The notes: generated from the letters alone by a model not told the origin. A stretch of 64,000 nucleotides of DNA from an uncultured Acidobacteriota bacterium (GCA_963818645.1 CAWFTF010000025.1:32828-96827); one strand, 5' to 3'; positions 11,458 through 52,084 are shown, counted from the first letter of the stretch. Made by a program: numbers and translations.

Positions 11458-11460
11458 AGT

Positions 11461-19012: not shown

Positions 19013-19017
19013 AAAAG

Positions 19018-19672: not shown

Positions 19673-19730
19673 CGTGCCAGTCGCCTGCGCAAAGATGTGA
19701 AGGGGTCTGACCCCTGCGTCGTATTGAGCG

Positions 19731-32736: not shown

Positions 32737-32770
32737 GGCCCGGAGGTTCACGCTTCCGGGCCTTTTTCTT
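32737..32770 (+). terminator. Rho-independent terminator
   Basis: ggcccgga-ggttcacgct-tccgggcc followed by tttttctt. Confidence 0.7.
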
Positions 32771-35800: not shown

Positions 35801-35970
35801 TCCGCGTGTCTGAGGGCGTACGCGCGGACATCAGGTTCGAGTCGTTCAACGTCACCAATGCCGTCAATCTCGGCAACCCCAATACCACTGTCGGCGACGT
35901 CAACTTCGGGCGCATCTCGTCTGCTGGCGCAGCGAGACAGAGCCAGGTTGCCGTGAAGCTGCTGTTCTGA
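32826..35970 (+). pseudogene. Oar-like TonB-dependent transporter (carboxypeptidase-regulatory-like N-domain), one frameshift
   Basis: Signal peptide, then GVISDSTGAFLPGATVTATHVATN...GQYRTPPLRIGDYELTV, and AETVTVDA. The barrel continues in the second frame from ~34759 (PTNYRQFAPRAGFAY...) and ends ...VAVKLLF. Confidence 0.85.
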
Positions 35971-36036: not shown

Positions 36037-36951
36037 GTGGCGCGATCGTCATGGCCGATGATCGCGGCGGGAGCAAGCACCGCGATCGCACAGGGAGCCC
36101 AGTCATGGCGCGAGCGAACGGTTGTGCCAATTGCGTCCGTCGAGTGGACGGGTGCGCGACTCGCAGACGGTCAGCCAGACGTGCAGGGCCACTGGTCCAA
36201 CACGATCGGCAACCACAACAACTTCACTCGTCCGCAAGGAGGCGACGATGGTGCGCCGGGCGGAGGAGCGAGGGAGCGGGGCCAGGCGAATCGCGCTCCG
36301 AGCCGGGTGAGTGATCCACCAGACGGTCAGATCCCATACCAGCCCTGGGCGCGAGCCAGACAACAGGAGTTCGGTTCTCATCTGGACGATCCGACGCGTC
36401 CCGAGTATGTCGAGCCGCTCGCACGGTGCGCGCCCGCAGGTCCAACCAAGTCGTTCATGTGGCACGGCTACGAGATCCGCCAGTATCCGGGCTATGTGCT
36501 GTTCCTCTTCGATTCTGGTACGCGAATCATCCACCTTGATGCCAAGCCGCATCTTGCGGAGAACGTCAAGCTGTGGAACGGCGACTCGCGCGGCCACTGG
36601 GAAGGCAACACGCTCGTCGTCGACGTCACCAACAACAACTCGAAGTCGCGGTTCGCGCGCACTGGTGAGTTCGTCAGCGAGCACGCGACCATTCAGGAGC
36701 GTTACATCTTCGACAGCGCGGGTGAGCGCTTCATCTATCAAGCGGTCTACACCGATCCGACCGTGCTGACGCGGCCGTTCACGGTGACGATTCCCAACCG
36801 CCGTATCACCGACAAGACGCCGCAGGACGGCTGGAACAACATCACGTTCCCCGCCATCCACTCCGGCACCGAACCCATCATCGAAGCCTACGAACGCACG
36901 TGCGTCGAGAACAACGGCGAGCACGGCGGCGTAGCTGTCGAGTCGAAGTAG
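36037..36951 (+). CDS. secreted DGKPD-SG-W family protein (P280-2)
   Basis: DGQPDVQGHW, RCAPAGP, GHWEGNTLVVDV, IQERY, DPTVLTRPF, AYERTCVENN. The true start may be ATG 36015 (MKNHKLRSGAIV...) with another indel near 36050. Confidence 0.75.
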   Translation: MARSSWPMIAAGASTAIAQGAQSWRERTVVPIASVEWTGARLADGQPDVQGHWSNTIGNHNNFTRPQGGDDGAPGGGARERGQANRAPSRVSDPPDGQIPYQPWARARQQEFGSHLDDPTRPEYVEPLARCAPAGPTKSFMWHGYEIRQYPGYVLFLFDSGTRIIHLDAKPHLAENVKLWNGDSRGHWEGNTLVVDVTNNNSKSRFARTGEFVSEHATIQERYIFDSAGERFIYQAVYTDPTVLTRPFTVTIPNRRITDKTPQDGWNNITFPAIHSGTEPIIEAYERTCVENNGEHGGVAVESK

Positions 36952-36968
36952 AGGAGAACCCGATAGCC

Positions 36969-37391
36969 ATGACACGCACAACTGCTTTACTCGGCGCCGT
37001 TCTCACGTGGGCGCTCGTCGTAACGGTGCCGGCAGCCGCGCATCATTCGTTTGCCGCGGAGTTCGACGCGAACAAGCCCGTTGAATTGAAGGGGGTCGTC
37101 ACCAGGCTTCAGTGGACGAACCCGCATGGGTGGATCTACGTGGACGTCAAGGACGCCAGCGGCGTCGTCACGAACTGGGCGATCGAGTTCGGTGCGCCGT
37201 ACAGCCTGCTGCAGAAGGGACTGCGCAAGAGTGACTTCCCGGTGGGCTCCGAGGTCGTCGTGAAAGGATTCCGCGCCAAGACCGGCAAGGCAGTGGCCAA
37301 CGCGCGGAGCGTCACGCTGCCCGACGGACGCAACTTCTACGCATCGGGGGGAGACAGTCCGGGCGCACCGGTGGAAGTGAGCGCGCGATGA
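36969..37391 (+). CDS. small secreted protein, DUF6152-like (mature N-terminus HHSF), paralogue 2
   Basis: ...TVPAAA|HHSFAAEFDANKPVELKGVVTRLQWTNPH. The stop overlaps the next ATG (ATGA). Confidence 0.8.
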   Translation: MTRTTALLGAVLTWALVVTVPAAAHHSFAAEFDANKPVELKGVVTRLQWTNPHGWIYVDVKDASGVVTNWAIEFGAPYSLLQKGLRKSDFPVGSEVVVKGFRAKTGKAVANARSVTLPDGRNFYASGGDSPGAPVEVSAR

Positions 37392-38158
37392 GGCTACCAG
37401 CGCTGCTCTTGTTGTTGGCTGCCTCGTCTCTGCTTACAGCGCACGGCGCGTGGGCGCAGGAGACACAGCCGTCGATCCCTCGTAGTGCCGACGGCAAGCC
37501 TGACTTCTCCGGAATCTGGCAGACGCTGAGCGCCGCCGAGTACGACCTGGAGCCGCACTCGACCCGGAAAGATGCACCTCCCGGACCGGGCATCGTCGAA
37601 GGGCAGGTCATCCCGTATCGGCCGGAGGCGTCGCAACAGCGCAAGAAGAATTTCGACGCGCGCGCGACCAACGACCCGCGCGAGAAGTGCTTCACCCTCG
37701 GGACGCCGCGCGGCATCTACTCGCCGGAGCCCTTTCAAATCTTCCAGCGCGCACGCGACCTGACGCTGGTCTTCCAGTTCGGGCACTCGGTGCGCACGAT
37801 TCACACCAACGAGACTCGTCACCCGAAGGCCCGATCGGATTCTGGCTCGGTGACTCCCGCGCTCGATGGGAAGGGGACACGCTCGTCGTCGATGTCGTCG
37901 ACTTCAACGGCGAGACCTGGCTCGATCGCGCCGGGAACTTCCACAGCGACCAACTGCACGTCGTCGAGCGCTGGTCCTTCCTCGACGCCAACACGATTCA
38001 GTACACCGCGACGCTCGAGGACCCGACGGTGTACACGCGGCCGTGGAGCCTGAGCGTGATACTGCACCGGCACCGCGAACCCGAATTTTCAGCTGATCGA
38101 GAACTACTGCTACACGCTCGACTACGACAAGTTCTATCCCGTGCCCTCCGGGCAATAG
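37388..38158 (+). pseudogene. secreted DGKPD-SG-W family protein (P280-3), two frameshifts
   Basis: ADGKPDFSGIW...KCFTLGTP... (frame 1), then EGPIGFWLGDSRARWEGDTLVVDV...HVVERW...DPTVYTRPW (from ~37820), then QLIENYCYTLDYDKFYPVPSGQ* after the TTTT run at 38086-38089. Confidence 0.8.
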
Positions 38159-38193
38159 GGCTGACGAATATGTATCGAATCAGGAGAACGTCA

Positions 38194-38661
38194 ATGAAGA
38201 CAGCAGGTGTCATGATGATGTTGGCTGCCCTCGTCACGTGTGGGCGCCACGGGGCAGGCGCAGCAACCGGCGCAGGGCGAATGTCGTCGCGCCCGGCCTC
38301 GACCGCAAAGATCCTCAAGCGTGCGGAGATCGATGCGCTGCTCGCGCAGCCGTCGAACGTGCTCGTCATCGACGTGCGGCGTCCCGACGAGATCGGGTCG
38401 ATCGGCGGTTTCCCGGTTTATCTGAACGTGCAAGCCGGTGATCTCGAGAAGCGACTCCCGTCGATTCCGAAGGACCGCCTGATCATCACCGTTTCGAATC
38501 ACGCGTCGCGCGCCGGACGTGCGGCGGACCTTTTGCAGAAGAACGGCTTCAACGTGGCCGGTGCCGCCGGCGCTCAGGACTACGAAGCCGAGGGAGGCGC
38601 GCTCGTGAAGATTGCGCCGCCATCGCGAAGCACGGCCTCGGCCGAGCCACGCAAGCAGTAA
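38194..38661 (+). CDS. secreted rhodanese-homology domain protein, active-site Cys replaced by Ser
   Basis: Signal/lipobox-like N-terminus, VLVIDVRRPDEI, and an active-site loop reading IITVSNHASRAGRAADLL where rhodaneses have C-x4-R-[SA]. Confidence 0.75.
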   Translation: MKTAGVMMMLAALVTCGRHGAGAATGAGRMSSRPASTAKILKRAEIDALLAQPSNVLVIDVRRPDEIGSIGGFPVYLNVQAGDLEKRLPSIPKDRLIITVSNHASRAGRAADLLQKNGFNVAGAAGAQDYEAEGGALVKIAPPSRSTASAEPRKQ

Positions 38662-38668
38662 CGGATTC

Positions 38669-38743
38669 GGCGCGGTGGCGAAGCGGCAACGCGGTGGTCT
38701 GCAAAACCACCATCCGAGGGTTCGAGTCCCTCCCGCGCCTCCA
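38669..38743 (+). tRNA. tRNA-Cys (GCA)
   Basis: Acceptor ggcgcgg/ccgcgcc, anticodon arm gtggt-ctGCAaa-accac, T arm gaggg-ttcgagt-ccctc, discriminator t and encoded CCA. Folded by hand. Confidence 0.9.
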
Positions 38744-38755: not shown

Positions 38756-39416
38756 ATGATCACGGAGGTTCAGGCCGACGAGGGGAGCGTCAACTGGTCG
38801 CGGGTGGCAGCGTTGTTCGAGGATCGATACGGCGCTGGATCGGCCGAGCGGCTCATCTCGATGCTCGAGCAGCCGTGCGTGACGTTTGCGCGCATCGCCA
38901 GCCGAGTTCGGTGTCACCCGTGAATGCGTCCGACTGTGGCATCAGCGCCTGTTGCCGGACGCGCCACGTGGGCATCAGCGACAGCAGTTGTGCCGCGAGC
39001 ATCAGATGAAGCGGCGATTGCTCGAGGACGCGCTGTTCCTCAGGTTCTATCGCCACATCCGATCGTCGGTGCCGCACCAGCGCGTCACCCTGATCCCGTC
39101 ACGCGACGGGTTTCGCAAGCGCACGGTGCGTATCGATGGCCGTACGATCGCGCTCAGGCGTGCGCGTCGGAACAGTGCGTGGCGCGGCTCGAACAACGGG
39201 ACTGTCTATACCCTGACGAGCAGTCCTGCCGGCGCGGATCTCTTGTATTACGAGCTCTCGTCCGAGGACTACCTGCTTGTTCCACGAGAGGCTCTGCCCG
39301 TTGGAATCGTCACGTACGTCGACACGGACGCATCAACGTATCAGCGTTTCAAGAACACCTTGGCAGCGCTTTCGCGACCGTCTAGCCTTCAGGTCGAATG
39401 GGCTCGGCGGGGGTGA
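38756..39416 (+). pseudogene. hypothetical protein with putative HTH segment, one frameshift
   Basis: MITEVQADEGSVNW...CVTFARIAS (frame 1) continues as EFGVTRECVRLWHQRLLP... (frame 2) near 38902. No family recognised. Confidence 0.5.
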
Positions 39417-40290
39417 TTCGAGAGCGAGCGAGCTCCTCGTTGCGTTTGACCTGGGGCAATTGCACCGAGAAGAAACGATAGAGAAGCCACGAGTCGAGCA
39501 GGCCCACTGCCACGAGCACGAGATATGCGAGATTGCTCTGCACGAGGCCGAGGTCCTTGAGCAGCGTCGACAAGCCGAAGCCGACGATCCACGCATCGAA
39601 GCTCATACACAAGCGACGGAAGGTTTCCGGGCGGATTCGCTGGATGATGTAGGCGCCGATCGGTACGCCAATCGCAATGCTTGGCAGGATGTACGGGATG
39701 AGCGCCATACTCTGCACCGTGTAGAGTCCGGCGTAGGCATACGCGATCGCAGTGAAGCTCGATTCCGCCAGCCGGATGAAGCCGAGTGCGGCGCGAAAGT
39801 CTCTCTGCGTCAGGCCCTGGTTGCTCAGCATCACCGCCAGCGGTGGCCCTGAGATCGTGGTGACCGAGTAGAGCACGCCGACGCCGCCGCCGAACACCAA
39901 CCCGACCGACCGCTCGGACTTGATCGGCCTTCGATACCCGGCCGCCTGAAACAGGATCAACGGCAGCAGAACGATGAACGTGCCGAACCGGAGCCAGCCC
40001 GGGTTGACGATCGACACAATCGCGGTGCCGAGGATGACGCCCGGCAGCAGACCGATCACGATCGGCAGCACGCGCCGCCACACGCGAGGCAGTGCGTCCC
40101 GATTCACCCATAGCACGTAGGCGTTGAGGGCGACTTCGATCGGGATGAGTGCCGGGTTGAGAACGCGGTTGGTCAGGAAGAGCAGCGCGATCGGAACGGT
40201 GATCGACGAGAACCCGTAACCAAGGGCACCGTTGACGATAGCCGCGCCGAGCGTGATGAAGACGAGTGCGAGCTGAGCAGGGTCCATCAC
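39382..40290 (-). CDS. TauE/SafE family sulfite/anion exporter
   Basis: N-terminus LGAAIVNGALGYGFSSITVPIALLF and 8 TM helices with internal duplication, typical of DUF81/TauE. Confidence 0.85.
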   Translation of the reverse strand: MMDPAQLALVFITLGAAIVNGALGYGFSSITVPIALLFLTNRVLNPALIPIEVALNAYVLWVNRDALPRVWRRVLPIVIGLLPGVILGTAIVSIVNPGWLRFGTFIVLLPLILFQAAGYRRPIKSERSVGLVFGGGVGVLYSVTTISGPPLAVMLSNQGLTQRDFRAALGFIRLAESSFTAIAYAYAGLYTVQSMALIPYILPSIAIGVPIGAYIIQRIRPETFRRLCMSFDAWIVGFGLSTLLKDLGLVQSNLAYLVLVAVGLLDSWLLYRFFSVQLPQVKRNEELARSRITPAEPIRPEG

Positions 40291-40360: not shown

Positions 40361-41432
40361 TCATTCGGACTCGTCCACGGTGTGATGCTGCCGATACTGG
40401 CGCCAGTCGATCTTCAGCTTCCGCATGCGCGCGCGCAGCGTATGCGGGTTGATCTCGAGCAGGCGCGCCGCCCCGTGCCGCCCCTCGACCCGGCCGCCGG
40501 TCGCCTCGAGCGCAGCCTCGATGTGCTGTCGAATGACGACGTCGAGCGGCGCAAGGCGGGACGGCGCCGTCTCGCTCGATCGCACCGGAGCGGGAGCCGA
40601 TGCCCTCGGGTCCTGGCCGAGTGCGCCCGCAACGTTGAGCGCTTTCCCCTGACCGATTAACACCGCGCGGTCCATCACCGCGGCCATCTCGCGCACGTTA
40701 CCCGGCCACTGATACTCGGCCAGCAACTTCACGTCACTGTCCGAGACCGGCACCGGACGAAGACCGAAGCGGTTTGCCGCGAGCTCCGCGAAGTACTCGG
40801 CAAACGCACGGATATCGCTCGGGCGATCGCGCAGCGGCGGGATCACGATCGGAAACACCGAGAGGCGATAGTACAGGTCTTCGCGAAACGTCTGCTGTTC
40901 GACCATGCTGGGCAGATGGCGGTGCGTGGCGGCCACGATTCGCACGTTCACTTTGACCGGCCGCTCTCCGCCGACGCGAACCAGCTCGGATTCCTGGACC
41001 ACGCGCAGCAGGCGGACTTGCGCCGCGAGGTGCAAGCTCGCCGACTTCGTCGAGAAACAGCGTGCCGCCGTCGGCCTGCTCGAACCAGCCTTTGCGCCGG
41101 GCCACTGCACCAGTGAAGGCGCCCTGCTCGTGGCCGAACAGTTCCGAATCGATGAGTTCGGCAGGAATCGCTCCACAGTTGACGCGGCGGAATGGGCCGT
41201 GCCGGAACGGCGAGTGTTCGTGGATTGCGCGGGCGATGATCTCCTTGCCGGTTCCGGTCTCACCGAACACCAACACCGGCGCGGCACTGCGGGAAACGAT
41301 GCGGGCCCGCGCCATCACCGCCGCCAATCCTGTGTCGCCGCCGATCAGCCGCTCCTCGCCCGCGCGAGTGTCGCCATTGATGAGCACGGCAGGAGCCAGC
41401 CGCGTCGGAGCTATCTTCTGTTTCTGTGACAT
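40361..41432 (-). pseudogene. sigma-54-dependent transcriptional activator (AAA+ plus Fis-type HTH, no sensory domain), one frameshift
   Basis: GETGTGKE Walker A, GAFTGA loop and [12 protein letters not shown] (frame 1). Then [18 protein letters not shown]...RIVAATHR...WPGNVREM and a C-terminal HTH (AARLLEINPHTLRARMRKL) in frame 2. The switch is near 41035. Confidence 0.85.
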
Positions 41433-41483
41433 ATGACAGATATCGACTGGCTATTATTACAGAAAATCTGTCTTATTTAACAG
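41424..41483. promoter_or_regulatory. AT-rich segment with two CTGT-N8-ACAG dyads (candidate activator binding sites)
   Basis: ctgtgacatatgacag (41424-41439, overlapping the activator ATG) and ctgtcttatttaacag (41468-41483), plus acagaaaatctgt between them. The local AT-richness is unique in the window. Confidence 0.45.
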
Positions 41484-41532
41484 AAGTAGATGATTCCGGG
41501 TCTGGGAAGTCAAATTCCACGGAAAACCCGCA

Positions 41533-41548
41533 CGGTCCAGGTCTTGCC
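41533..41548 (+). promoter_or_regulatory. candidate sigma-54 (-24/-12) promoter
   Basis: cGGtccaggtcTTGCc has GG (41534-35) and TTGC (41544-47) at exactly the TGGCAC-N5-TTGC spacing. The -24 flank is weak. It lies ~240 nt upstream of ATG 41787 and ~50 nt downstream of the dyads. Confidence 0.35.
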
Positions 41549-41786
41549 TCTTGCCCATGCGATGTCTCCGCTCGCCCATCGATGTCCCTGTCGTCCCACG
41601 TCGTGTCGGTGCGCATGTATGACGCCGACGACCACCGGGTGGTAAGCGACCTCCGCTAGTTCGGTCCGCCCCCACCCTCTGCCCCGGTCGATCGGCTCAC
41701 CAGTTCACGTCACACACACGTTGCTGTGCGCAGGCACGCACAGCAGTTTCGGGGCGCCGATCGGTGCATCGGCCAGAGGAGATTCG

Positions 41787-44372
41787 ATGTTTCGCAGAGT
41801 GTTCATGTTGTCCGCGGTGCTGCTCGCCGGGTTGATTCCCGCGACAGCCAGCGCTCAGACCGCGGCCGCTGTCGGCGGTGTGGTTCGTGACTCGTCCGGC
41901 GGTGCCATCCCCGGTGCGACGGTTCGCGTGATTAACGAAGCCACCGGCGCCGCGCAGGAAGCCGTCAGCGACGCAGAGGGCCGCTATCAAGTGACCGACC
42001 TGGCTCCCGGCCAGTATCGCGTGGAGGCGGCGCTCGACGGATTCGAGCCGGCCGTTGCTCGTGGTGCCGTCGACGGACGCCAGGCGGCGAAGATCGACGT
42101 GACGCTGACGCCTGCTCGATTCACGGAAGGCGTGGTCGTGACGGCTCGTCGTGTCGAAGAGGCGGCTCAGGAAGTTCCCATTCCGGTGTCGGTGTTGAGT
42201 GGCGAGCTTGTCGCCAACGCCGGCGCGTTCAACGTGAATCGCGTGAAGGAACTGATTCCGACCGTCCAGTTCTATTCGTCCAATCCACGCAACTCCGCGG
42301 TCACCATTCGTGGCATCGGTTCACCGTTCGGCCTCACCAACGACGGCATCGAGGCCGGCGTCGGCCTCTACATCGACGGCGTGTTCTACGCGCGTCCGGC
42401 GTCGGCCACGCTCGACTTTCTCGACGTCGCGCAGGTTGAAGTGTTGCGCGGACCGCAGGGGACGCTCTTCGGCAAGAACACGACGGCGGGTGCCATCAAC
42501 GTGACCAGCAAGCGGCCCACGTTCACGCCGGAATCGAACATCGAGCTGGCCTATGGCAGTTACGACTTCGTTCAGGCGAAGGCTTCGGTGTCAGGCGGGT
42601 TCAATGAGAAGGTCGCCGGACGGGTCTCGTTCTCGGGCACCGGGCGCGACGGGTTCATCTTCAACACCGCCGAGCAGGCGAAGACGAACACGCTGAACAA
42701 TCTGGGCTTCCGTGGTCAATTGCTCGTCCTGCCGTCCAAGCAGGTGGCCATCAACGCCTCGGTCGATCACACGCGGCAGCGCCCGAATGGGTATGCACAG
42801 GTGATTGCGGGTGTGGCGCCGACGCTTCGACCGGCCAACCGGCAGTGGGCGCAGATCGTCTCCGATCTCAACTACACGCCGCCGAGCTACAACGCGTTCG
42901 ATCGCCTGACGGACACCGACACGAGCTGGCAGTCCAACCAGGATCTCGGTGGCGGCTCGGCCACGATCGACTGGACGGTGGGACGAGGACGGATCACGTC
43001 GCAGACCGCCTACCGATACTGGAACTGGGATCCATCCAATGACCGCGACTTCATCGGCCTGCCGGTGACGACGATCTCGGCCGGCACCTCGAAGCAGCGC
43101 CAGTGGACGCAGGAGGTCCGGTATGCGGGGCCGCTGTCCTCGCGCTTCAATCTGGTCACCGGCATCTTCGCGTTCCACCAGGGCATCGACTCCAATCCGG
43201 TGATTAAGCAGGAGCAGGGATCGGCGGCGGCGCGTTTCCTCCTGGCGCCGAGTGCCGCCGCGGCGACGCCCGGCCTTCTCGATGGATACGGATTCGATCA
43301 ATATCTGAAATTCCGCAATATGAGCGCAGCGGCGTTTGGTCAACTCGAATGGCTCGTCACCGATCGCCTTCGCATCCTCCCGGGCCTGCGCTTCAACTAC
43401 GACCAGAAGGACGTGGACTTCAACCAGACCGTCTATGGCGGACTCCAGACGACGAATCCGGCGCTCGTCGCGCTGAAGCTCTCGGTCCTCGCGCCGCAGG
43501 CATACACCGCCGACGTCGATGACACGAACACCTCCGGGCAGCTGACGGTGGCATACAAGGTCACCCCGGCCGTGAACACCTACGGCACATACTCGACCGG
43601 CTTCAAGTCCGTCGGCCTCAACCTGAATGGTGTGCCGACGGATGCGCTCGGCAACCCAGTTCTTTCAGCAGCGGTGATCAAGCCGGAAGACGCACGTCAC
43701 GTGGAGTTCGGCGTGAAGACCGAGTTCCACCCCGGTTACACCGCGAACTTCACGGTCTTCAACACCAGGATCAAGGACTACCAGACGCAGGTCGTGAATG
43801 CGCAGGTCGGCGTGTTACGTGGCTACCTGGCGAACGCCGAGAAGGTGCGTGTGAGAGGCGCCGAATTCGACGGCAGCGCACGGATCAACAAACGGCTCTC
43901 GTTCTATGGCGCCGCCGCCTATACCGACGGTATCTACGTCTCGTTCCCCGACGCGCCGCCGCCGCTCGAAGAGACCGGCGGTCCACAGGTAAAGGACATC
44001 TCCGGCTCCGTGCTCCCCGGCATCTCGAGGTGGGCACTCACGTTCGGTGGTGAATACAACAAGCCGGCCACTGTCTTCGGCCAGAACGGCGAGTTCTTCG
44101 GCGCCGTCGACAGCAGCTATCGAACCGAGTTCTCGTCGAGCCCGTCCGCGTCGCGCTACATGATGGTGGACGGCTATGGACTGGTCAACCTGCGGACCGG
44201 GTATCGCTGGAACGATGGTTGGTCGGTATTCCTCTGGTCGCGCAATCTGCTCGACAAGCAATACTACGAGATCCTCTCGGCGCAGCCGGGGAACTCCGGA
44301 TTGATCGTCGGCTTGCCCGGAGACCCGCGCACGATCGGCCTGACCGTGCGCATGAATCTTCGCTCGAAATAG
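41787..44372 (+). CDS. TonB-dependent receptor with N-terminal carboxypeptidase-regulatory-like domain
   Basis: Signal peptide, GGVVRDSSGGAIPGATVRVINEATG...GRYQVTDLAPGQYRV, TonB-box-like EGVVVTA, plug (VEVLRGPQGTLFGKNTTAGAINV) and a 22-strand-size barrel. Confidence 0.9.
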   Translation: MFRRVFMLSAVLLAGLIPATASAQTAAAVGGVVRDSSGGAIPGATVRVINEATGAAQEAVSDAEGRYQVTDLAPGQYRVEAALDGFEPAVARGAVDGRQAAKIDVTLTPARFTEGVVVTARRVEEAAQEVPIPVSVLSGELVANAGAFNVNRVKELIPTVQFYSSNPRNSAVTIRGIGSPFGLTNDGIEAGVGLYIDGVFYARPASATLDFLDVAQVEVLRGPQGTLFGKNTTAGAINVTSKRPTFTPESNIELAYGSYDFVQAKASVSGGFNEKVAGRVSFSGTGRDGFIFNTAEQAKTNTLNNLGFRGQLLVLPSKQVAINASVDHTRQRPNGYAQVIAGVAPTLRPANRQWAQIVSDLNYTPPSYNAFDRLTDTDTSWQSNQDLGGGSATIDWTVGRGRITSQTAYRYWNWDPSNDRDFIGLPVTTISAGTSKQRQWTQEVRYAGPLSSRFNLVTGIFAFHQGIDSNPVIKQEQGSAAARFLLAPSAAAATPGLLDGYGFDQYLKFRNMSAAAFGQLEWLVTDRLRILPGLRFNYDQKDVDFNQTVYGGLQTTNPALVALKLSVLAPQAYTADVDDTNTSGQLTVAYKVTPAVNTYGTYSTGFKSVGLNLNGVPTDALGNPVLSAAVIKPEDARHVEFGVKTEFHPGYTANFTVFNTRIKDYQTQVVNAQVGVLRGYLANAEKVRVRGAEFDGSARINKRLSFYGAAAYTDGIYVSFPDAPPPLEETGGPQVKDISGSVLPGISRWALTFGGEYNKPATVFGQNGEFFGAVDSSYRTEFSSSPSASRYMMVDGYGLVNLRTGYRWNDGWSVFLWSRNLLDKQYYEILSAQPGNSGLIVGLPGDPRTIGLTVRMNLRSK

Positions 44373-44427
44373 CGCGTCGGCGCGGGCGGTGCTTGCGTGT
44401 TGCTCGCGTCCGCGCCACCATGTCGAG

Positions 44428-45687
44428 ATGTCGTTCGACGGTAGCAACCGAATCTGGCAACACGCGAGCGCGTTCGCCGCGCTGATGGTCATCGCGCTGA
44501 CCGTGGCGGCGTGCACCTCGCCGCCACCACCGGTGCCGCCTGCCGCGACCACCGCCGCAAAAACGTTCGTCGGGTCGGCCGCGTGCGAATCGTGCCATCG
44601 CGACGAATACAGCAGATGGAAGGACACGCTCATGGCGCGTGTCGTCCTCGATCCGGCACAGCATCCAGATGCTGTGCTGGGCGATTTCTCCACGCCGAAT
44701 CCGCTCGTCACGTTCAAGAAGGAAGAGGTGGCGTTCATCTACGGTACGAAGTGGAAGCAGCGCTACTTCACCAAACGCGGAGACGACTACTTCGTGTTCC
44801 CCGCGCAGTGGGACATCCAGGCAAAGACGTGGCGGCGCTACTACGTCGAGCCGGGAACGGACTGGTGGGCCGAGCATTACCCAGCCGACCAGATGCAGAG
44901 ACCGACGGGTCCTCTCTGCGACGGCTGTCATTCGGTCAACTACGACATCAAGACCAAGCAGGTGACGGAGTGGAACGTCGGTTGTGAGAAGTGTCACGGC
45001 GCCGGAAGCCTGCACGTGCAGAATCCGGTAGCCTCGACCATCGTCAATCCCGCGAAGCTCCAGGGCGACCGGGCCGACGATGTGTGTCTGCAGTGTCATA
45101 CGCAGGGTCAGCCACGCACGAAACCGCTCGAGGGCGTCTACTACGACTGGCCGGTGGGTTATCAACCGGGCGATCGACTCAGCGACGTCTGGATGCTCGA
45201 AGAGCATCACCTCGGCAAGGAGACGTTCACGCACTGGCCCGACGGTCACGCACACAAGAACCGGATGCAGGGAAACGACTTCGTGCAGAGTCAGATGTCG
45301 TTGAAAGGCGTGCGCTGTTACGGATGCCACGACGTGCACGGCACGCCGAATGAGGCTGACCTGCGGTTGCCGGGAAATGCGGTCTGCTTACAGTGTCATG
45401 ATCCCCGGCGACAGCCGGGCCCACCTGGAACGCTGGAGCAACATACGCAGCACGCGGCCAACAGTGAAGGCAGCAAATGCATCGCGTGTCATATGCCGCT
45501 CATCGCGCGGACTGTCGGCACGGTGAACGTTCGCAGTCACACGTTCAAGTTCATTTCCCCGAGCACGACTCTGCAGAATGGCGTGCCCAATCCCTGCACG
45601 TCGTGCCACAAGGACCGCACGCCGCAGTGGGCGAGCGACGCGTTGAAGAAATGGCCGGGGGTTTCCGCATGGCGCGTCGGCGGTTAG
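44428..45687 (+). CDS. octahaem c-type cytochrome, probable lipoprotein
   Basis: Eight CxxCH motifs (CESCH, CDGCH, CEKCH, CLQCH, CYGCH, CLQCH, CIACH, CTSCH). Lipobox LTVAAC. Start ATG 44428 within ORF 44389..45687. Confidence 0.9.
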   Translation: MSFDGSNRIWQHASAFAALMVIALTVAACTSPPPPVPPAATTAAKTFVGSAACESCHRDEYSRWKDTLMARVVLDPAQHPDAVLGDFSTPNPLVTFKKEEVAFIYGTKWKQRYFTKRGDDYFVFPAQWDIQAKTWRRYYVEPGTDWWAEHYPADQMQRPTGPLCDGCHSVNYDIKTKQVTEWNVGCEKCHGAGSLHVQNPVASTIVNPAKLQGDRADDVCLQCHTQGQPRTKPLEGVYYDWPVGYQPGDRLSDVWMLEEHHLGKETFTHWPDGHAHKNRMQGNDFVQSQMSLKGVRCYGCHDVHGTPNEADLRLPGNAVCLQCHDPRRQPGPPGTLEQHTQHAANSEGSKCIACHMPLIARTVGTVNVRSHTFKFISPSTTLQNGVPNPCTSCHKDRTPQWASDALKKWPGVSAWRVGG

Positions 45688-46385
45688 CCGCGTCTCTCGT
45701 GAGCGCCGCGTGTGTGGCCCTTCCGACGCCGGCGGCCGCGCAGGACGAGCCGCGCTGCGTGGTTCTGTGCGCCCCGGAGCTCAAGATCGAGCCGACGTGG
45801 ACCATCGAGAATCTCGGCGGCCGGCGCCGTATCGAGGTGAATGGGGAGGTCGAGTCGGTCGGCGTCGAGTCGGCGTTCGAGCTCGTGCTCGCGTTGGATG
45901 TGCCCACCACGATTCCACGCGTGGGGTTCACGTTCGAGGCGATCTTCAGCCCGTTCGGCTCGACCAGCGTGCATCCGTTCACGGGTGTCCCGGCCGCAGA
46001 CGTGGGCCGTGATTCGATCCGCGACAACGGCGTCGAGATCGAAACCGAATTCAACTTCAATCTGTTCGAGGCCGAACAGACCGGCGGCTGGATCTCGTCC
46101 CACTTCGACGTCGTCGATCAGTTCAGCCCGGGCGAGACGCCGAGAGCGGGCAGCACCTACACGCACAAGCTCGACTTCGAGTGGGACACCGCTTTTCACC
46201 TGTTCAACAGGTTGTCAAAGGGGCACTGGCTTCGGAATGTCGAGGCTGAGGTGTCGCTCGACTATCTCGCGACAGGTCTGCCCAAAGCAGGCGACATCAT
46301 CGGCGACGAACGGTTTCTGGACGACGCCAGCCCGTGGTCGTTCGCTGTACTCATGATCATTCCGCTCGCGCCACTCGCGCCCTGA
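45669..46385 (+). CDS. secreted hypothetical beta-rich protein
   Basis: MARRRLAASLVSAACVALPTPAAAQ signal and an alternating-polarity sequence. Overlaps the cytochrome 3' end by 19 nt. Confidence 0.65.
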   Translation: MARRRLAASLVSAACVALPTPAAAQDEPRCVVLCAPELKIEPTWTIENLGGRRRIEVNGEVESVGVESAFELVLALDVPTTIPRVGFTFEAIFSPFGSTSVHPFTGVPAADVGRDSIRDNGVEIETEFNFNLFEAEQTGGWISSHFDVVDQFSPGETPRAGSTYTHKLDFEWDTAFHLFNRLSKGHWLRNVEAEVSLDYLATGLPKAGDIIGDERFLDDASPWSFAVLMIIPLAPLAP

Positions 46386-46394
46386 GAGGACACG

Positions 46395-46860
46395 ATGGCG
46401 CTACTCCCGTCCTGGGCCCCGAATCTCCATCCGCTCGTGATCCATTTTCCGATCGCCCTCATCATCGTTGCGGCGTTCGCGGACCTCGTCGACTCGCTGT
46501 TTGGCCGCCCACAGTGGCTCGCGTCCGCAGCCACGACGCTGTTCGCGTTGGGAGCTGCGGGCGCCATCGTCGCCTGCCTGAGCGGGCAACAGGCACTCGA
46601 GACGGTGCTGATGCCCGGCATGGCTCATCCCATCGTCGAATCGCATCGCACGTGGGCGCTTGCGACGACATTCTATTTCTCGCCTGTTGACGCTGATTCG
46701 AGTGGGCGCCGCATACCGCGCTCCTCTGGCACGTCGCTATCGTTTCGTGCTGCTGATTGCTTCGCTCGTCGGAGTCGCCGGGCTCCAGCAAACGGCCGAG
46801 CGTGGCGGACGGCTGGTGTTCGAGCAGGGCGTGGGTGTGATTGGATCGAGTCTGCGATGA
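46395..46860 (+). pseudogene. DUF2231-like membrane protein, one frameshift
   Basis: LHPLVIHFPIALIIVAAF and TM helices in frame 1. The C-terminus (...LLIASLVGVAGLQQTAERGGRLVFEQGVGV) is in the ORF 46660..46860 frame. The switch is near 46680. Confidence 0.7.
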
Positions 46861-47597
46861 CGCGATCGGAGGAGCTGATGCGCAGAACATTCATGATCAT
46901 CGGAATCGTCGTGCTCACTTCGATGGCTGCTCAGCAGGCACCGAATCCTCGTCAGCAACCTGGCGCGACGGTGACGATGTTCGCCCCGGAGCAGCACGAT
47001 CTGTACGACGGCCACTTCATCCTCTCGGCGTCGCGCGTCTACATGGTTGGCGGGCTCAACGATGCACCCGGCTGGGATCACATGGACAATGCCGCGGCGA
47101 CCTTGAGACCCGCGGCAGGGACCGTGGAGATCGATGTCGACGAGATCAAGAACACGGGGCGCTTCGAGGCGCGGCTGAAGGTTCCCGAAGGCGATCTGGT
47201 GCTGGCGTTCGATCGATTTCGCGAGTTCAACCCCTGTCAGAACGGCGGGATCGTCGCGGCCCTGCACGAGCACGGTACCGACTCGGGCTGCGGGGACAAC
47301 AACTGGCCGAAGACGTTTGTCTATCTCGCCGGATGGGGCGACGGGCATGCGACGCTCAACGGCAAGCCGCTGTACCAGGACTACGAGATGCACTTCATGG
47401 TCACGCAGGGGATTCGCGACCGGAAGACGCTGAAGGTGGCGTACCCCCTTGACGGCAAGAAGCTGCCGGGCGGGGAAGTGAATCCCGCGACGCAGCAGAT
47501 CGACTTCTACATCCGCAGTCCGAAAATGGATCAGCGGAACAAGCCTGCGCGCGAGGTCTTCATGCATTTCTTCGGTATGGAGGTGACCTGGAAGTAA
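46857..47597 (+). CDS. secreted hypothetical protein
   Basis: ATGA overlap with the preceding gene. Signal anchor MRRTFMIIGIVVLTSMAAQQ. 246 aa, no recognised family. Confidence 0.65.
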   Translation: MTRSEELMRRTFMIIGIVVLTSMAAQQAPNPRQQPGATVTMFAPEQHDLYDGHFILSASRVYMVGGLNDAPGWDHMDNAAATLRPAAGTVEIDVDEIKNTGRFEARLKVPEGDLVLAFDRFREFNPCQNGGIVAALHEHGTDSGCGDNNWPKTFVYLAGWGDGHATLNGKPLYQDYEMHFMVTQGIRDRKTLKVAYPLDGKKLPGGEVNPATQQIDFYIRSPKMDQRNKPAREVFMHFFGMEVTWK

Positions 47598-47609
47598 GGT
47601 ATTGACCAC

Positions 47610-48110
47610 ATGGAGCCGTTCTTTGTGTGGCTCGAGGCCACGTCTCTCAGTACCTGGCTTCGCGAGTCACCGTCGTTGTGGGCCTTTCCCTTCGTGCTGA
47701 TTCTCCACACGGTGGGGCTGGCGTTCTTCGTCGGCACGAACGTCGCGTGGGACGTTCGCGTGCTCGGCTTCAGCCTGGGCATCCCGCTCGAGGCTTTACG
47801 GCGCTACTTCCTGGTGATGTGGGCCGGCTTCTGGATCAACGCCTTTTCCGGCGTCCTGCTGCTCATCGCCTATCCGACCAAGGCGCTGACCAATCCGCTC
47901 TTCTACGCGAAGCTTGCGCTCATCGCGTTCGGAGTCGTGCTGGCGTTTCGGATTCGTCGAGAGGTGAACGGGCTCGCCGCGCCCGCTGACGCCCCTCCGA
48001 TGGCAAGGATGCTCGCGGCGGTATCGCTCGCGTGCTGGATCGCCGTCATCTTCGCGGGCCGACTGCTTGCGTATACGTGCACGCGTCTGACGGTGGACTT
48101 CCCGTGCTAG
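47610..48110 (+). CDS. small 4-TM membrane protein (tandem paralogue 1)
   Basis: 166 aa; WAFPFVLILHTVGLAFFVGTNVAWDVRVLGF resembles PIFESLHFLGMSLLLGTVGVFDLRLLGF of the next gene. Confidence 0.7.
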   Translation: MEPFFVWLEATSLSTWLRESPSLWAFPFVLILHTVGLAFFVGTNVAWDVRVLGFSLGIPLEALRRYFLVMWAGFWINAFSGVLLLIAYPTKALTNPLFYAKLALIAFGVVLAFRIRREVNGLAAPADAPPMARMLAAVSLACWIAVIFAGRLLAYTCTRLTVDFPC

Positions 48111-48602
48111 ACCAGCTGCTTCACGCGGTGGAGGCGTATCTGCGTCATACGCCGCAGGGCGAGTTTCTGCGGACGGCGAGATGGGGCTGGCCGATCTTCG
48201 AGTCGCTTGCACTTCCTCGGCATGTCCCTGCTGCTCGGAACGGTCGGCGTCTTCGACCTCCGGCTGCTCGGGTTCGCAAGGCGGATTCCGATCGCTGCGC
48301 TGCACCGGCTGATTCCGATTGGCATCTCGGGCTTCTTCATCAACCTCGTGACCGGTATCTGCTTCATCTCGGCCACGCCCGATCAATACCTGTTCAACAA
48401 GGCGTTCTACTGGAAGGTGACGTTCATCACGATTGCTGGCGTGAACGTGCTGATCTTCTACGCGCGAACATTCAGGCGATTGTTGGAGACGCCACCGGAC
48501 GTCCCACCTCCATTGTCGGCACGTCTGGCTGGCGGAGTGTCGCTGCTCGCGTGGATCGGCGTCATGTCTGCTGGACGGCTGTTGACGTTTTTCAGGCCAT
48601 AG
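48104..48602 (+). pseudogene. small 4-TM membrane protein (tandem paralogue 2), one frameshift
   Basis: A GTG 48104 start (VLDQLLHAVEAYL...WPIFESL) continues as HFLGMSLLLG... in the ORF 48207..48602 frame. The switch is near 48209. Confidence 0.65.
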
Positions 48603-48604: not shown

Positions 48605-48714
48605 GGTCCACAGTCCACGGTCCTCGGTCCACGAGTCTCGGTTCTGCTCGAATCCCGAATCCCGAATCGCGAACCCCGAATCCCGAATCCCGAATCCCGG
48701 ATCCCGGGCCCCGG
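48605..48714. repeat. Composite array: class C (GTCCACRG) then class B (CGAATCCC) then CCCGGGNC units
   Basis: ggtccacagtccacggtcctcggtccacgag ... ctcgaatcccgaatcccgaatcgcgaaccccgaatcccgaatcccgaatcccggatcccgggccccgg. Confidence 0.9.
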
Positions 48715-48736: not shown

Positions 48737-50149
48737 ATGAATGTTTCGCGTCTCCTGCTCGTCACGTTCATCGTCGTGGCATCGGCTTTCAACACCGGTC
48801 TGCACGCGCAGTGGAATGCGACTGCGATCGAGGCCGAAACGATGCAGCATTTTCAGGCGCTGCTGCGTCTGGACACCACCAGCCCGCCAGGAAATGAGCG
48901 ACGCGCGGTCGAATACCTGGAGCAGGTACTGAAGCGCGAGGGCATCTCCTATCAGGTGTTCGCCAAGGATCCGCAACGTCCCAACCTGGTCGCGCGCATC
49001 AAAGGCAACGGGAAGAAGCGGCCAATCCTCGTGATGGGGCACACCGATGTCGTGTCCGTCGATCCGCAGAAATGGAGCTTTCCGCCCTTTGGCGCCACCC
49101 GCGACGGCGGCTATGTGTACGGCCGCGGCGCCGTTGACGACAAAGACAGCGTCGTCGCCGGCCTGATGCTGATGCTGACACTCAAGCGCAACGGAACGGC
49201 TCTCGATCGCGACGTGATCTTCCTCGCGGAGTCGGGAGAGGAAGGGGCCCCCGAATTCGGCGCGCAGTTCATGATCGACAACCACTTCGACGCCATCGAC
49301 GCCGAGTACTGCTTTGCCGAGGGCGGCGGCGTCGCGCGCTCGGGTGGCCGCGTGACGCAGGCGACTGTGGGGACGACGGAGAAAGAGCCGCGTCCGATTC
49401 AGCTCATCGCGCATGGGACGTCGGGCCATGGCTCGGTGCCGTTGAAGGACAACGCCATTGCGCGGCTCTCGTCGGCGCTGGCGAAGATCTCCGCGTGGGT
49501 GCCTCCGTTGCAACTCAGCGAGACGACGATCGCCTACTTCAAGACGCTGGCGACTGTCGTGCCGCCCGAGATGGCGCAACGCTACAGAGATGTGCTGAGC
49601 ACCAATCCAAAGGCCGCAGCCGCAGCCGCCGAGTGGATGCTCGAGAACCAGCCACAGCACTGGTCGATGCTCCATACGTCGCTCGTCCCGACAATCATCG
49701 ATGGCGGCTATCGCTACAACGTGATTCCCTCTGAGGCGAAGGCGACCATCGACGTGCGACTGCACCCCGAAGAGGACCAGAAGACGTTTCTCGATCGCGT
49801 GCGTGCCGTCATCAACGACCCGAAGGTGGAAGTGCGATGGTCGCGCGATTCGTATCGCCCCGCTGGCGCGTCACGCCTGAACACCGAGGCGTTCACGGTG
49901 CTGCAGACGCAGCTCAAGGCGCACTACAACACGATCACGCTGCCGATGATGGGAACCGGGGCCACCGACATGTCGCAGGTTCGATCGAAGGGTGTGCAGT
50001 GCTACGGCATCGGTCCGGCGCTCGACACCGAAGACTCCGCGCGCGGCTTCGGCGCGCACAGCGACCAGGAGCGCATTCTCGAAAGCGATCTGCACCGCTT
50101 CGTGCGTTTCCAGTACGACGTGGTGATGGAGCTGGCGAGAGCGCGATAA
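48737..50149 (+). CDS. secreted M20 family metallopeptidase
   Basis: MGHTDVV and GRGAVDDKDS motifs, plus a signal peptide. Start at ATG 48737 within ORF 48032..50149. Confidence 0.9.
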   Translation: MNVSRLLLVTFIVVASAFNTGLHAQWNATAIEAETMQHFQALLRLDTTSPPGNERRAVEYLEQVLKREGISYQVFAKDPQRPNLVARIKGNGKKRPILVMGHTDVVSVDPQKWSFPPFGATRDGGYVYGRGAVDDKDSVVAGLMLMLTLKRNGTALDRDVIFLAESGEEGAPEFGAQFMIDNHFDAIDAEYCFAEGGGVARSGGRVTQATVGTTEKEPRPIQLIAHGTSGHGSVPLKDNAIARLSSALAKISAWVPPLQLSETTIAYFKTLATVVPPEMAQRYRDVLSTNPKAAAAAAEWMLENQPQHWSMLHTSLVPTIIDGGYRYNVIPSEAKATIDVRLHPEEDQKTFLDRVRAVINDPKVEVRWSRDSYRPAGASRLNTEAFTVLQTQLKAHYNTITLPMMGTGATDMSQVRSKGVQCYGIGPALDTEDSARGFGAHSDQERILESDLHRFVRFQYDVVMELARAR

Positions 50150-50218
50150 GGATCCGGGATTCGGGATTCGGGATTCGGGATTCGGGATTCGAGAGTCCAA
50201 AGCCGAGAGCCGAGAGCC
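50150..50218. repeat. Class B array in opposite orientation (GGGATTCG)5 followed by class G (CCGAGAG) units
   Basis: ggatccgggattcgggattcgggattcgggattcgggattcgagagtccaaagccgagagccgagagcc lies between convergent genes. Confidence 0.9.
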
Positions 50219-51073
50219 TATCTAAAATGCTCCGTTGACTTCTCGTTCTCGAGGCAGATGAACTCGATCAGCTCTGTGTCGAGCATGATCTCGTTCTTGA
50301 TCGTCACCGTCCACGGCCGCGTGTACACCTTGGGATCGTCGACAGTGACCTCGATGTCGAGATTGCCGTAGTTCACGCGCGTGAAGCGCTCGGTCATCTT
50401 CGCGGCGTCGGTCAGCGGACTGCCGTTCACGTCCAGCCAGCCACCATCACGGAATCCAGTGGTCTCGACCACGAGCGTGTCGCCCACCCATTTGCCGGTG
50501 GAGTAGCCGAACCACCACGGCTGCTGGTCGTTGTCAGGCAGCGGACGGCCGTCAGTGTGGATCTGCCTGATGCCCGCGTTCCCTTCATACAGGATCACGA
50601 CGATCGACGGCGTCTGAATAATCTTGCGCGGCTGCGGATGCGTGTAGAGCTGCATGTTGCCCATCGGCAGGCAATGCGCATCCGGGTTGTCCTTCATGTT
50701 GTCTGCCATGCGCTGCTTCTTGAGTGCGAGCGCTGCTGGCTGAAACGGCAGCCCACCCGGAACGCCGGATCCGATGTCGAAGAACAGCCCCGGCCCTCGC
50801 GGCAACACCGCAGGCGTGCCGGGCGCGCCGCCTGTCCCACTGACGCCGCTGCCCGCACCGATCTCACGCCAGCCCGGGCTGCCCCAGATGCCTGACAGGT
50901 CTGGCTTCCCGTCGGCCGTGCGCGGTGCTGGTGCCAGCAAGATTCGGTTTGCCGTCTGCTGTTCGCGGAACGTTGGGAGTAGGGAAGGACGGCCACTGCG
51001 CCGAGAGCGACCCGGAGCAGAACGCGACGAGCGTGACGACGGCGGCCGAGCGGAGCGCGAACGCAATATGCAT
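50218..51073 (-). pseudogene. secreted DGKPD-SG-W family protein (P280-4), one frameshift
   Basis: The signal peptide plus PNVPRTADGKPNLA (ORF 50864..51073 frame) continues as PAPRTADGKPDLSGIW...HCLPMGN...GKWVGDTLVVET...DDPKVYTRPW...EFICLENE. The switch is near 50935. Confidence 0.8.
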
Positions 51074-51076: not shown

Positions 51077-52084
51077 TCAGAACATCGCGATCGGGTTGAC
51101 GGGTGAGCCGGTGCCGCGCGGGATCGGCAGCGGCGCGATCATCAACATGAATTCCCAACGCTTGCGAGCCGCGGCGGCGGCGCTGACGGCGTCGAAGTCC
51201 GCGCGATCGAGCAAGTGCACGCCGAGGATCGTCAACACGAAATTGTGCAGCGAGCTCGGGGCCAAATCTCCTGGCGGGTGCGGCGCATAGTCGGGCGTCT
51301 CCCATCCGAGTATCGCGATGTCGCGCTTCTTGAGCCACGGGATGACCGAGTTGTCGAGGCCCGCCATCGCCTCGTTGATCGGCCAGGGGCCAAGCGTCGA
51401 CCGCCGCGCCCATCGGCCCCAGCGCAGAAGCAGCGCATCACCAGCCATCGCCTTGACGCCGGCCATCTTCTCCCAGGCTTCCAGGTCTTCCGCGAAGATG
51501 CGCGTGCCCGGCTCGAGGTACGGCACGCCCTTCAGCCTCGGGATGTCGTAGAGAACTCCACGGGTGACGATCCCGTTCTTCATCGTGAGGATCGAGTTCT
51601 TCGCGGCGCCTCCGTCTTTGGTGACCAGCCGCTCGACTGGATATCCGTTCCACATCTTGCCGCCGAAGAACACGTGAGCGAACGAATCCAGGTGCGTCGT
51701 GCCGGCGCCATGAATGCACGGATAACCGATGCGGTCGGTGGCCGCCGAGGAGGTGGCCGTCACCATCGCCCATTCCACCGGGCAGGGAACGTCCACGCTT
51801 TTTTCGGTCTCGGCGTTCGACGCGAGCGACACGGCTACACCGTCTTTCACCAGTGCTGCCGCCTGTGCCCGTTTTGCTGCCGTCACCAGGTTGAGAGTGC
51901 CGAGCTCATCGTCTTTGCCCCATCGGCCCCAGTTCGAGAGCTCGGTCTGCCACCGTTCGTATTCGGCTTTCGTCACCAGGGGACGGGAGGCCGACGCGGG
52001 AGCGGAGCTGGTTTGCGACATGAGGACCACGCCGCAGGCGATGAACGACATCAGCAGCGAGCCAGACAGAGCCAGCTTTCGCAT
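51077..52084 (-). CDS. secreted cyclase family protein (arylformamidase-like)
   Basis: WGRWGKDDELGTLN and HGAGTTHLDSFAHV (HxGTHxDxxxH) motifs, plus a signal peptide. Confidence 0.85.
   Translation of the reverse strand: MRKLALSGSLLMSFIACGVVLMSQTSSAPASASRPLVTKAEYERWQTELSNWGRWGKDDELGTLNLVTAAKRAQAAALVKDGVAVSLASNAETEKSVDVPCPVEWAMVTATSSAATDRIGYPCIHGAGTTHLDSFAHVFFGGKMWNGYPVERLVTKDGGAAKNSILTMKNGIVTRGVLYDIPRLKGVPYLEPGTRIFAEDLEAWEKMAGVKAMAGDALLLRWGRWARRSTLGPWPINEAMAGLDNSVIPWLKKRDIAILGWETPDYAPHPPGDLAPSSLHNFVLTILGVHLLDRADFDAVSAAAAARKRWEFMLMIAPLPIPRGTGSPVNPIAMF

Follow-up and report, generated by a model that had tools for sequence, protein, structure and literature searches.

The locus described here occupies positions 40361-48602 of a 64,000-nucleotide (nt) stretch of DNA from an uncultured Acidobacteriota bacterium, the whole of which is called the window below. 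It consists of a gene for a sensor-less sigma-54 activator on the minus strand and, facing it, a tightly spaced plus-strand string of seven genes: a TonB-dependent receptor (TBDR), an octahaem c-type lipoprotein cytochrome, a secreted protein without Pfam family (G4), a DUF2231 inner-membrane protein, a second secreted protein (G6) and two DUF6644 paralogues. We considered both the signals that may control this string and the distribution of its genes across related loci, which show a mosaic of cassettes in a regulatory setting suggestive of cysteine or sulfur limitation.

Gene content and reading frames

Open reading frame (ORF) listing, translation and Pfam confirmed all the genes named in an initial annotation of the window, together with the overlaps that it had reported, of 19 nt between the cytochrome and G4, in an ATGA between DUF2231 and G6, and of 7 nt within the DUF6644 pair. 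The intergenic distances along the string are, in order, 55, -19, 9, -4, 12 and -7 nt, and judged by this spacing a single operon is plausible; no plus-strand terminator-like site was found inside the string, apart from one weak pattern match (48314-48331) within the second DUF6644 gene. Next to the activator gene, and also on the minus strand, lies its conserved syntenic neighbour, a TauE/SafE (TSUP) family permease gene (39382..40290, by Pfam), and on the other side a plus-strand gene for a secreted M20/M28 peptidase (48764..50149, by Pfam) forms, by synteny, the conserved downstream boundary of the variable locus.

The initial annotation had the gene content right and had missed that three of the eight genes are broken in frame in the window, each by one extra nucleotide: the activator at 41028, DUF2231 at 46682 and the second DUF6644 gene at 48205-48209. 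All three insertions are private to the window. Five metagenome contigs that are 98-99 % identical (L081, L090, L091, L092 and L094, related loci being numbered with an L throughout) lack the extra bases and have intact ORFs, DUF2231 being unbroken in L090, L092 and L094, and none of the three insertions sits in a long homopolymer. Two further genes are split nearby (a second TBDR-like gene near 34760, and 37388-38661); in all, some 16 kb contain at least five genes split across two frames, or roughly one break every 3 kb, and similar split ORFs occur in two long-read metagenome-assembled genomes (MAGs) of the same collection, L002 and L006. Because of this density of breaks, the intact relatives and the same pattern in long-read MAGs, we treat the frame breaks as probable assembly errors. 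Were the three frameshifts real, the activator, DUF2231 and one DUF6644 gene would be pseudogenes and the operon would be non-functional, decaying in the source strain. Three private single-nucleotide insertions among eight genes, with more split genes close by, speak for such decay, but some five breaks in 16 kb amid 98-99 % identity to intact relatives suit assembly error better, as do split ORFs of the same kind in the long-read MAGs, and we regard decay as very unlikely. The sequence CTTGCAC, present in the activator and the second DUF6644 gene, was tried as a programmed or systematic frameshift motif and rejected: it occurs 6 times where 7.3 are expected, which is no enrichment, and alignment with L081 places the extra base of the activator elsewhere.

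The sigma-54 activator and its promoter

The activator gene (40361..41432, minus strand), which appears in the window as ORFs in two frames, encodes a Sigma54_activat domain (PF00158, E 8e-68, residues 30-195) with the GAFTGA motif, an AAA_lid_14 region and a helix-turn-helix domain (HTH_8, residues 301-339). Ahead of the AAA+ domain there are 29 residues and no N-terminal regulatory domain. The orthologues are equally short, with 353-359 aa, and the reading frame, not intact in the window, is intact in the 98 % identical L081, where it reads GELAPAAQVRLL. The Pfam matches and these orthologues establish that the sensor-less activator is real and conserved; the GAFTGA motif, the C-terminal helix-turn-helix and the lack of an input domain had been recognised from the outset, and one detail, a distance of about 45 aa before Walker A, has to be corrected, since that motif starts near residue 57.

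PspF and HrpR/HrpS are likewise GAFTGA AAA+ proteins with a C-terminal helix-turn-helix and without receiver, GAF or PAS domain. The match of the window activator to the NCBIfam PspF models is partial and no NCBIfam equivalog was reached, the locus shows no partner gene of the PspA or HrpV kind and, unlike in the PspF and HrpR/HrpS type, the physiological signal may enter through the leader peptide described below.

Nine orthologous intergenic regions between activator and TBDR were aligned for regulatory elements. A sigma-54-type -24/-12 promoter, CGGTCCAGGTCTTGC (41533..41547, plus strand), with the canonical GG-N10-GC spacing, is kept in all nine amid diverged flanks, in support of the sigma-54 control suggested in the initial annotation. 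A strict scan for the sigma-54 consensus (at most two mismatches) returned nothing convincing in the intergenic region, and CGGTCCAGGTCTTGC departs from TGGCAC at -24. Farther upstream, in an AT-rich stretch, the inverted repeat ACAGA-N3-TCTGT (41459..41471, plus strand), partly conserved in the intergenic alignment, is a candidate binding site of the activator.

A conserved Cys-rich leader ORF

Between the promoter and the TBDR lies a short ORF, MSPLAHRCPCRPTSCRCACMTPTTTGW (41562..41645, plus strand), with 27 codons of which 5 encode Cys. Its ATG stands 15 nt past the -12 GC in all orthologues, and the leader is predicted to be near-leaderless, with the ATG about 3 nt past the predicted transcription start. 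Of 11 orthologous loci, all but the error-prone L002 retain the ORF and its Cys codons; in these 10, frame, length and the CxC...CRCxC pattern are preserved and variation falls in the other codons. Downstream, RNAalifold on nine sequences predicts a 10-bp long-range helix (41624..41696, plus strand) that pairs GCCGACGACC at the 3' end of the leader ORF (41624-41633) with GGTCGATCGGC (41686-41696), and a terminator-like GC hairpin followed by UUU (41723..41754, plus strand; dG -16.2) precedes the TBDR start by about 35 nt. Six diverged orthologues also have a GC-rich hairpin some 35-45 nt before the TBDR start, with a stem sequence that is different in each, followed by T3-T5. In the 240-nt leader Rfam matched neither a riboswitch nor an RNA family of any other kind. 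Promoter, leader ORF and hairpin are all conserved, and the region has the marks of an attenuator, that is a conserved short ORF with clustered Cys codons (CRCxC core) and RNA structure downstream; from these we infer attenuation at the leader.

In mycobacteria, polycysteine leaderless short ORFs act as cysteine-responsive attenuators (Canestrari et al., bioRxiv 10.1101/834739). The window leader is similarly short, Cys-rich, located at a predicted 5' end, upstream of sulfur- or cysteine-related genes and followed by RNA structure, and, as in the mycobacterial 'ribulon' of that work, several such leaders occur per genome region. It differs in belonging to another phylum (Acidobacteriota-like), in having interspersed Cys codons (CxC...CxCxC), in being paired additionally with a sigma-54 promoter and in what lies downstream, which in mycobacteria is a duplex that sequesters the ribosome-binding site and here a predicted terminator-like structure.

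Sulfur genes and further Cys-rich leaders

The window and the fetched loci were scanned for Cys-rich short ORFs. One of these, MSVRICRLCVRCCCSRTCKGPQGDDLAIG (31153-31242, minus strand), lies upstream of cysDN and looks like a classical Cys attenuator, being followed on the same strand by a perfect intrinsic terminator (31089-31118; dG -18.6), cysD (PAPS_reduct; 30128-31069) and a gene for a cysN-like GTPase (28797-30455). This leader is also present in L001 and L002, where cysN, cysD, the Cys leader, TauE and the activator lie in that order on one strand, divergent from the TBDR operon. On the plus strand, a polycysteine leader ORF, MPMTPTAPRLCCCCCCRCNRR... (32588-32698), with six consecutive Cys codons, is followed by a strong terminator (32737-32767; dG -25.0) and by the second TBDR-like gene of the window (32826-35970; CarboxypepD_reg, Plug and OMP_b-brl_4), the one that is split in two ORFs near 34760.

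Cys-rich upstream ORFs were also found at the DUF6644 pair of L115 and L116 and at the TBDR orthologue of L061, a gammaproteobacterial MAG. There, a CysB-family regulator, a ChrA-type transporter, the cytochrome and a G4-like gene stand in this order (7628-11910), and about 8 kb beyond the cytochrome and G4 a close orthologue of the window TBDR (18673-21224) is preceded by the Cys-rich short ORF MHGRACCCSCNVC.... Because of the Cys leaders, cysDN and these links in related loci, the scaffold formed by the TBDR, DUF6644, TauE and cysDN is well tied to cysteine or sulfur limitation.

Mosaic organisation of the string

Altogether, 170 related loci were compared. A first set of 80 genome loci was fetched with the cytochrome alignment, and the window proteins were mapped onto them; DUF6644 paralogue 1 served to retrieve a second set, of 80 metagenome loci. 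Families of neighbouring genes were obtained from gene calls based on GC content at third codon positions (GC3) and coverage-filtered clustering.

In the first set, the cytochrome occurs with G4 and/or DUF2231 in about 45 of the 80 loci (Vicinamibacterales, Gemmatimonadota and others), mostly without a window-type TBDR, and in two arrangements, the order being cytochrome>G4>DUF2231 in one, while in the other G4 points away from cytochrome>DUF2231. Only three loci, L001-L003, with cytochromes 80-81 % identical, also have the TBDR, the activator and TauE beside it, and G6 and DUF6644 are absent from all 80 loci. The second set has a conserved scaffold, with TauE and the activator on the minus strand, the TBDR and, farther on, the M20 peptidase on the plus strand, and a variable middle. 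The slot between TBDR and M20 holds cytochrome-G4-DUF2231-G6 and both DUF6644 genes in the window, a set found likewise in L090, a short contig that has the cassette genes only, without TBDR or M20. The same set minus G6 occurs in L092, by a clean internal deletion that leaves a 13-codon remnant. Elsewhere the slot contains the DUF6644 pair alone (L099 and L103), G6 with the DUF6644 pair (L104-L106, L108 and L111), or cytochrome-G4-DUF2231 alone (L001, L003 and L002, G4 and DUF2231 being identified in L002 by ORF matching). In L082, finally, Porin_O_P, Sbp, CysT, CysW and CysA, all above the NCBIfam cut-offs, precede cytochrome-G4-DUF2231.

These loci show the gene content and the mosaicism of the cassettes directly. 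Because slot content varies among loci and G6 stands alone in L088/L089, the string is, on the comparison of sequences, a mosaic of separable cassettes, and a dedicated TBDR-cytochrome machine is not supported. The variable slot behind the TBDR accommodates exchangeable cassettes: (i) the octahaem lipoprotein with G4 and DUF2231, (ii) G6, (iii) the two DUF6644 genes and, in a sister lineage, (iv) an anion porin with an Sbp-CysTWA sulfate importer. Cassette (i) is widespread and would be an autonomous envelope module.

Cassette (ii), G6 (46857..47597, plus strand), is a secreted beta-rich protein that has no Pfam or NCBIfam family and 1793 homologues, and whose neighbours in L088/L089 are unrelated genes; its AlphaFold2 model (predicted local distance difference test score, pLDDT, 66.8) had no significant structural neighbour in the fold search (best E 0.08). 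Cassette (iii) consists of DUF6644 paralogue 1 (47610..48110, plus strand), with four transmembrane segments and a weak similarity to CopD, and paralogue 2 (48104..48602, plus strand), both assigned by Pfam, and this tandem pair is retained in nearly all the 80 metagenome loci. Literature searches on DUF2231 and DUF6644 gave nothing informative. A non-coding element conserved in several lineages, GACTTCnnnTTCAGGAACTCTTCAG...CTCCGCTA, lies about 100 nt upstream of DUF6644 paralogue 1 in L094, L103, L104, L112 and L116 and is absent from the window, where the gap between G6 and paralogue 1 is 12 nt; GGGGTCTGACCCC hairpins occur downstream of the TBDR in L103/L104. DUF6152 proteins and secreted Pfam-less paralogues with the motif ADGKPD(F/L)SGIW form pairs or triplets in the window (31299-32530, 36037-38050 and 50218-51066) and in L088 (12508-14527), and homologues of these DUF6152-associated paralogues account for about 50 ORF matches in the fetched loci, in many cases close to cytochrome or DUF6644 genes.

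The TBDR (41787..44372, plus strand) belongs to the 22-strand barrel family and has an N-terminal CarboxypepD_reg domain, a Plug domain (PF07715, E 7e-16) and a barrel domain (PF00593, E 1e-38). No NCBIfam equivalog assigns it a substrate class. The initial annotation had suggested that this receptor and the octahaem lipoprotein work together, in an outer-membrane redox system or a reductive Fe/Cu acquisition system. In a dedicated system of this kind the cytochrome might, for instance, reduce a ferric complex that the TBDR takes in, electrons would come via DUF2231, and the DUF6644/CopD-like proteins would handle the metal. The seven-gene system of the initial annotation was to be judged by conservation of the neighbourhood across genomes, and by that measure it fails because the neighbourhood is not conserved, the trio of cytochrome, G4 and DUF2231 being the constant part. 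The TBDR is present without the cytochrome in the close relatives L099, L103-L106, L108 and L111, the trio lacks the TBDR in most genomes, and adjacency of this TBDR and the cytochrome is limited to the immediate lineage, in which the cytochrome is at least 80 % identical. There is some support for iron. In L085/L086, L062 and L018 the cytochrome lies inside or beside an ATP-binding cassette (ABC) importer whose binding protein matches the solved Fe(III)-binding proteins FbpA/HitA/FutA (E 1e-23 to 1e-15). TBDR-like genes are found at most 2 kb from the cytochrome in about nine unrelated loci, among them three with same-strand TBDR-like neighbours in Bryobacterales (L052, L057 and L074). The best NCBIfam and PDB matches of the window TBDR are siderophore receptors, though the TonB-siderophore model reaches 150 bits against a cut-off of 223.5 and the matches to solved receptors are confined to the plug, and DUF6644 has its weak match to CopD. 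TBDR-like genes are, however, abundant in these genomes, and the window itself contains another; the leader is rich in Cys codons, cysDN and TauE lie close by, joined in L082 by a sulfate importer, and the regulatory signals point to sulfur rather than to metals. No Fur-box-type signal was seen, in an analysis that did not search for one. We consider a dedicated outer-membrane redox or Fe/Cu acquisition system of TBDR and cytochrome unlikely.

The cytochrome, G4 and DUF2231

The cytochrome (44428..45687, plus strand) has a VAAC lipobox and eight CxxCH motifs, all eight of which are invariant in 15 homologues. Its family comprises more than 6697 homologues, the best 120 of them at 64-98 % identity. 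Among solved structures it best matches OcwA of Thermincola potens (PDB 6I5B; E 4.9e-26, in two stretches covering most of the protein), whose haem core superimposes on those of NrfA, c554 and MccA and which reduces nitrite and hydroxylamine. The window protein has no CxxCK motif, eight haem motifs against nine in OcwA, and no NCBIfam equivalog. By its sequence it is a relative within the NrfA/c554/MccA/OcwA superfamily and not a member of a characterised enzyme family; membership of a characterised soluble enzyme family had been named in the first description as one case that would tell against its proposal. Both proteins are envelope-associated multihaem c-type cytochromes, but OcwA is a Gram-positive surface protein whereas the window cytochrome is a diderm lipoprotein, and nothing in Thermincola corresponds to its constant partners, G4 and DUF2231.

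G4 (45669..46385, plus strand) has 2073 homologues, every one annotated as hypothetical. Its AlphaFold2 model, built on a 30-sequence alignment, has about 11 long strands after the signal peptide, in which hydrophobic and polar residues alternate, and in a Foldseek search against the PDB nearly all the top 50 matches were outer-membrane beta-barrels (among them OmpA, Ail, NspA, OpcA, OmpX, OprH and FapF), the resemblance being to barrels of 8-12 strands. G4 is thus a probable small outer-membrane beta-barrel. DUF2231 (46395..46860, plus strand, by Pfam; the extra base at 46682 is a G) is an inner-membrane protein with four transmembrane segments, which no solved structure was found to resemble, and its orthologues conserve four His (H12, H17, H78 and H84), compatible with cofactor or metal ligation. 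By synteny, G4 and DUF2231 are the constant partners of the cytochrome. The modelled trio would span three layers, the inner membrane, the lipoprotein cytochrome and the outer-membrane barrel, and a redox role in the envelope is plausible.

The gene clusters of MtrCAB in Shewanella and Pcc/Ext in Geobacter combine an outer-membrane beta-barrel with one or more multihaem cytochromes, and barrel and multihaem cytochrome are likewise clustered here. These systems are defined by a porin of about 20 or more strands that sheathes a periplasmic multihaem cytochrome, together with a cytochrome at the cell surface. To sheathe a cytochrome, G4, with 238 aa and about 10-12 strands, is too small; the window has one cytochrome gene, with no MtrA-like periplasmic decahaem and no extracellular partner, and its TBDR has a plugged barrel and does not consistently neighbour the cytochrome. 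The porin of L082 weakly resembles ExtI of the Geobacter Ext system. In MsrPQ, a membrane haem-b protein feeds a periplasmic redox enzyme, and the logic proposed here is shared, with DUF2231 and its four His passing quinol electrons to a periplasmic redox protein, but there is no sequence relationship and haem binding by DUF2231 is only putative.

In the scheme that we propose, DUF2231 would probably connect the trio to the quinone pool via its four conserved His, the OcwA-like cytochrome would perform periplasmic redox chemistry, and the G4 barrel would either admit the substrate or anchor the cytochrome. At this locus the presumed task of the trio would most likely be to turn an inorganic sulfur oxyanion, one such as sulfite, thiosulfate or tetrathionate, into something that the cell can assimilate.

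The wider gene context of the trio is heterogeneous, as would suit a general periplasmic electron hub passing electrons from dehydrogenases (pyrroloquinoline quinone (PQQ)-dependent or SorA-like) to the quinone pool or respiratory chain, the placement in the present operon being incidental. In 17 of the 80 genome loci the cytochrome has a PQQ dehydrogenase gene nearby, and in nine a gene for a SorA-like molybdoenzyme, and the size and strong conservation of the cytochrome family, in aerobic soil lineages, fit such a role. The PQQ genes are mostly 4-5 kb off, however, and on either strand, and a hub leaves unexplained both the dedicated outer-membrane barrel partner and the repeated placement beside importers and anion porins, so that a purely general function seems improbable to us. 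A set of SorA-like, cyclase and in part G4 genes is divergent from the cytochrome in several Vicinamibacterales genomes (L017, L028, L030, L035 and L038), and a gene of the 'putative cyclase' family (51077-52084, minus strand) lies close to the window locus.

Other neighbours would suit a trio that detoxifies sulfate analogues (chromate, selenite/selenate or tellurite) in the periplasm and is co-expressed with sulfur uptake, which lets these analogues in. In L061 the ChrA-type chromate transporter stands directly ahead of cytochrome-G4, the L082 porin matches ExtI, a porin of a selenite/tellurite operon (E 1e-5, below the cut-off), an ArsR/ArsM-like gene precedes the cytochrome in L046, and resistance-nodulation-division (RND) efflux pumps adjoin it at several loci. 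Every one of these links is weak or a single case, and detoxification is accordingly a doubtful explanation that we rate as very improbable.

A proposed composite operon for cysteine or sulfur limitation

The reading that we prefer, with a probability of about one half, is that of a composite sulfur-scavenging operon controlled by sigma-54 and by cysteine or sulfur limitation, with exchangeable cassettes of which one would be an OcwA-like envelope redox module. The sigma-54 promoter would presumably be opened by the divergently encoded sensor-less activator. The first element of the transcript would be the nearly leaderless 27-codon ORF with its five Cys codons, followed by RNA helices and the terminator-like hairpin. 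When Cys-tRNA is scarce, ribosomes would stall in the leader, the RNA would refold and more transcription would read through into the TBDR and the downstream genes, the outcome being control of the operon by cysteine or sulfur limitation.

Several observations weigh against this reading. The transcription start, leaderless translation and Cys-responsive read-through are features that we infer from the sequence; the arms of the 10-bp helix are nearly invariant and hence give no covariation support; the U-tract of the hairpin is short (3-5 U); and when folds of the leader 3' arm, the GGTCGATCGGC element, the terminator-like hairpin and a hairpin ahead of the ribosome-binding site were compared by eye, no clear antiterminator pairing was seen. 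Three genes of the locus are frame-broken in the window sequence itself. Confidence in the G4 model is moderate, at a pLDDT of 70.7, and the structures that it matches score weakly (TM 0.35-0.41, E from 3e-4). The neighbours of the cytochrome elsewhere include FbpA-like Fe(III) ABC transporters, PQQ dehydrogenases and RND pumps, and a search in other lineages for Cys-rich leaders directly upstream of the trio found none convincing. Because no Cys leader precedes the trio elsewhere, its link to sulfur rests on its membership of the operon here, on L061 and on the SorA-like neighbours.

A broader proposal, which we put forward tentatively as the less probable one, is that the trio may be an unrecognised three-layer electron-transfer system of the envelope in soil Acidobacteriota and Gemmatimonadota, plugged into nutrient-limitation operons where it would alter the redox state of a scarce sulfur oxyanion or of iron before uptake.

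Other features of the window

Tandem heptamers (GAATCCC)n occur at 5625-5659, 28780-28793 and 48650-48705 (plus) and at 50156-50190 (minus), against 0.02 matches expected, and two of these arrays, in inverted orientation, flank the M20 peptidase gene. The sole Rfam match in the window is a tRNA gene (38669-38740, plus strand), which lies between a rhodanese-like ORF and a block of family-less ORFs, upstream of TauE.

Significance

Essentially every Acidobacteriota genome encodes multihaem cytochromes with at least eight CxxCH motifs, which act on unknown substrates (PMC8100337). One very abundant family of these cytochromes (more than 6,000 homologues) now has constant partners, one in each of two membranes, and so offers a concrete three-protein target for biochemistry. 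The comparison also carries a caution, since the tight spacing of genes in one genome hinted at a seven-gene machine that related loci split into independent cassettes. As to regulation, our analysis suggests that cysteine sensing by leader peptides, so far demonstrated in mycobacteria, operates in Acidobacteriota-like soil bacteria, where such leaders would control TonB-dependent receptors and cysDN and would in one case act on top of a sigma-54 promoter. Confirmation of this would link otherwise unassignable receptors and DUF proteins (DUF6644 and the TauE neighbours) to a nutrient, sulfur.

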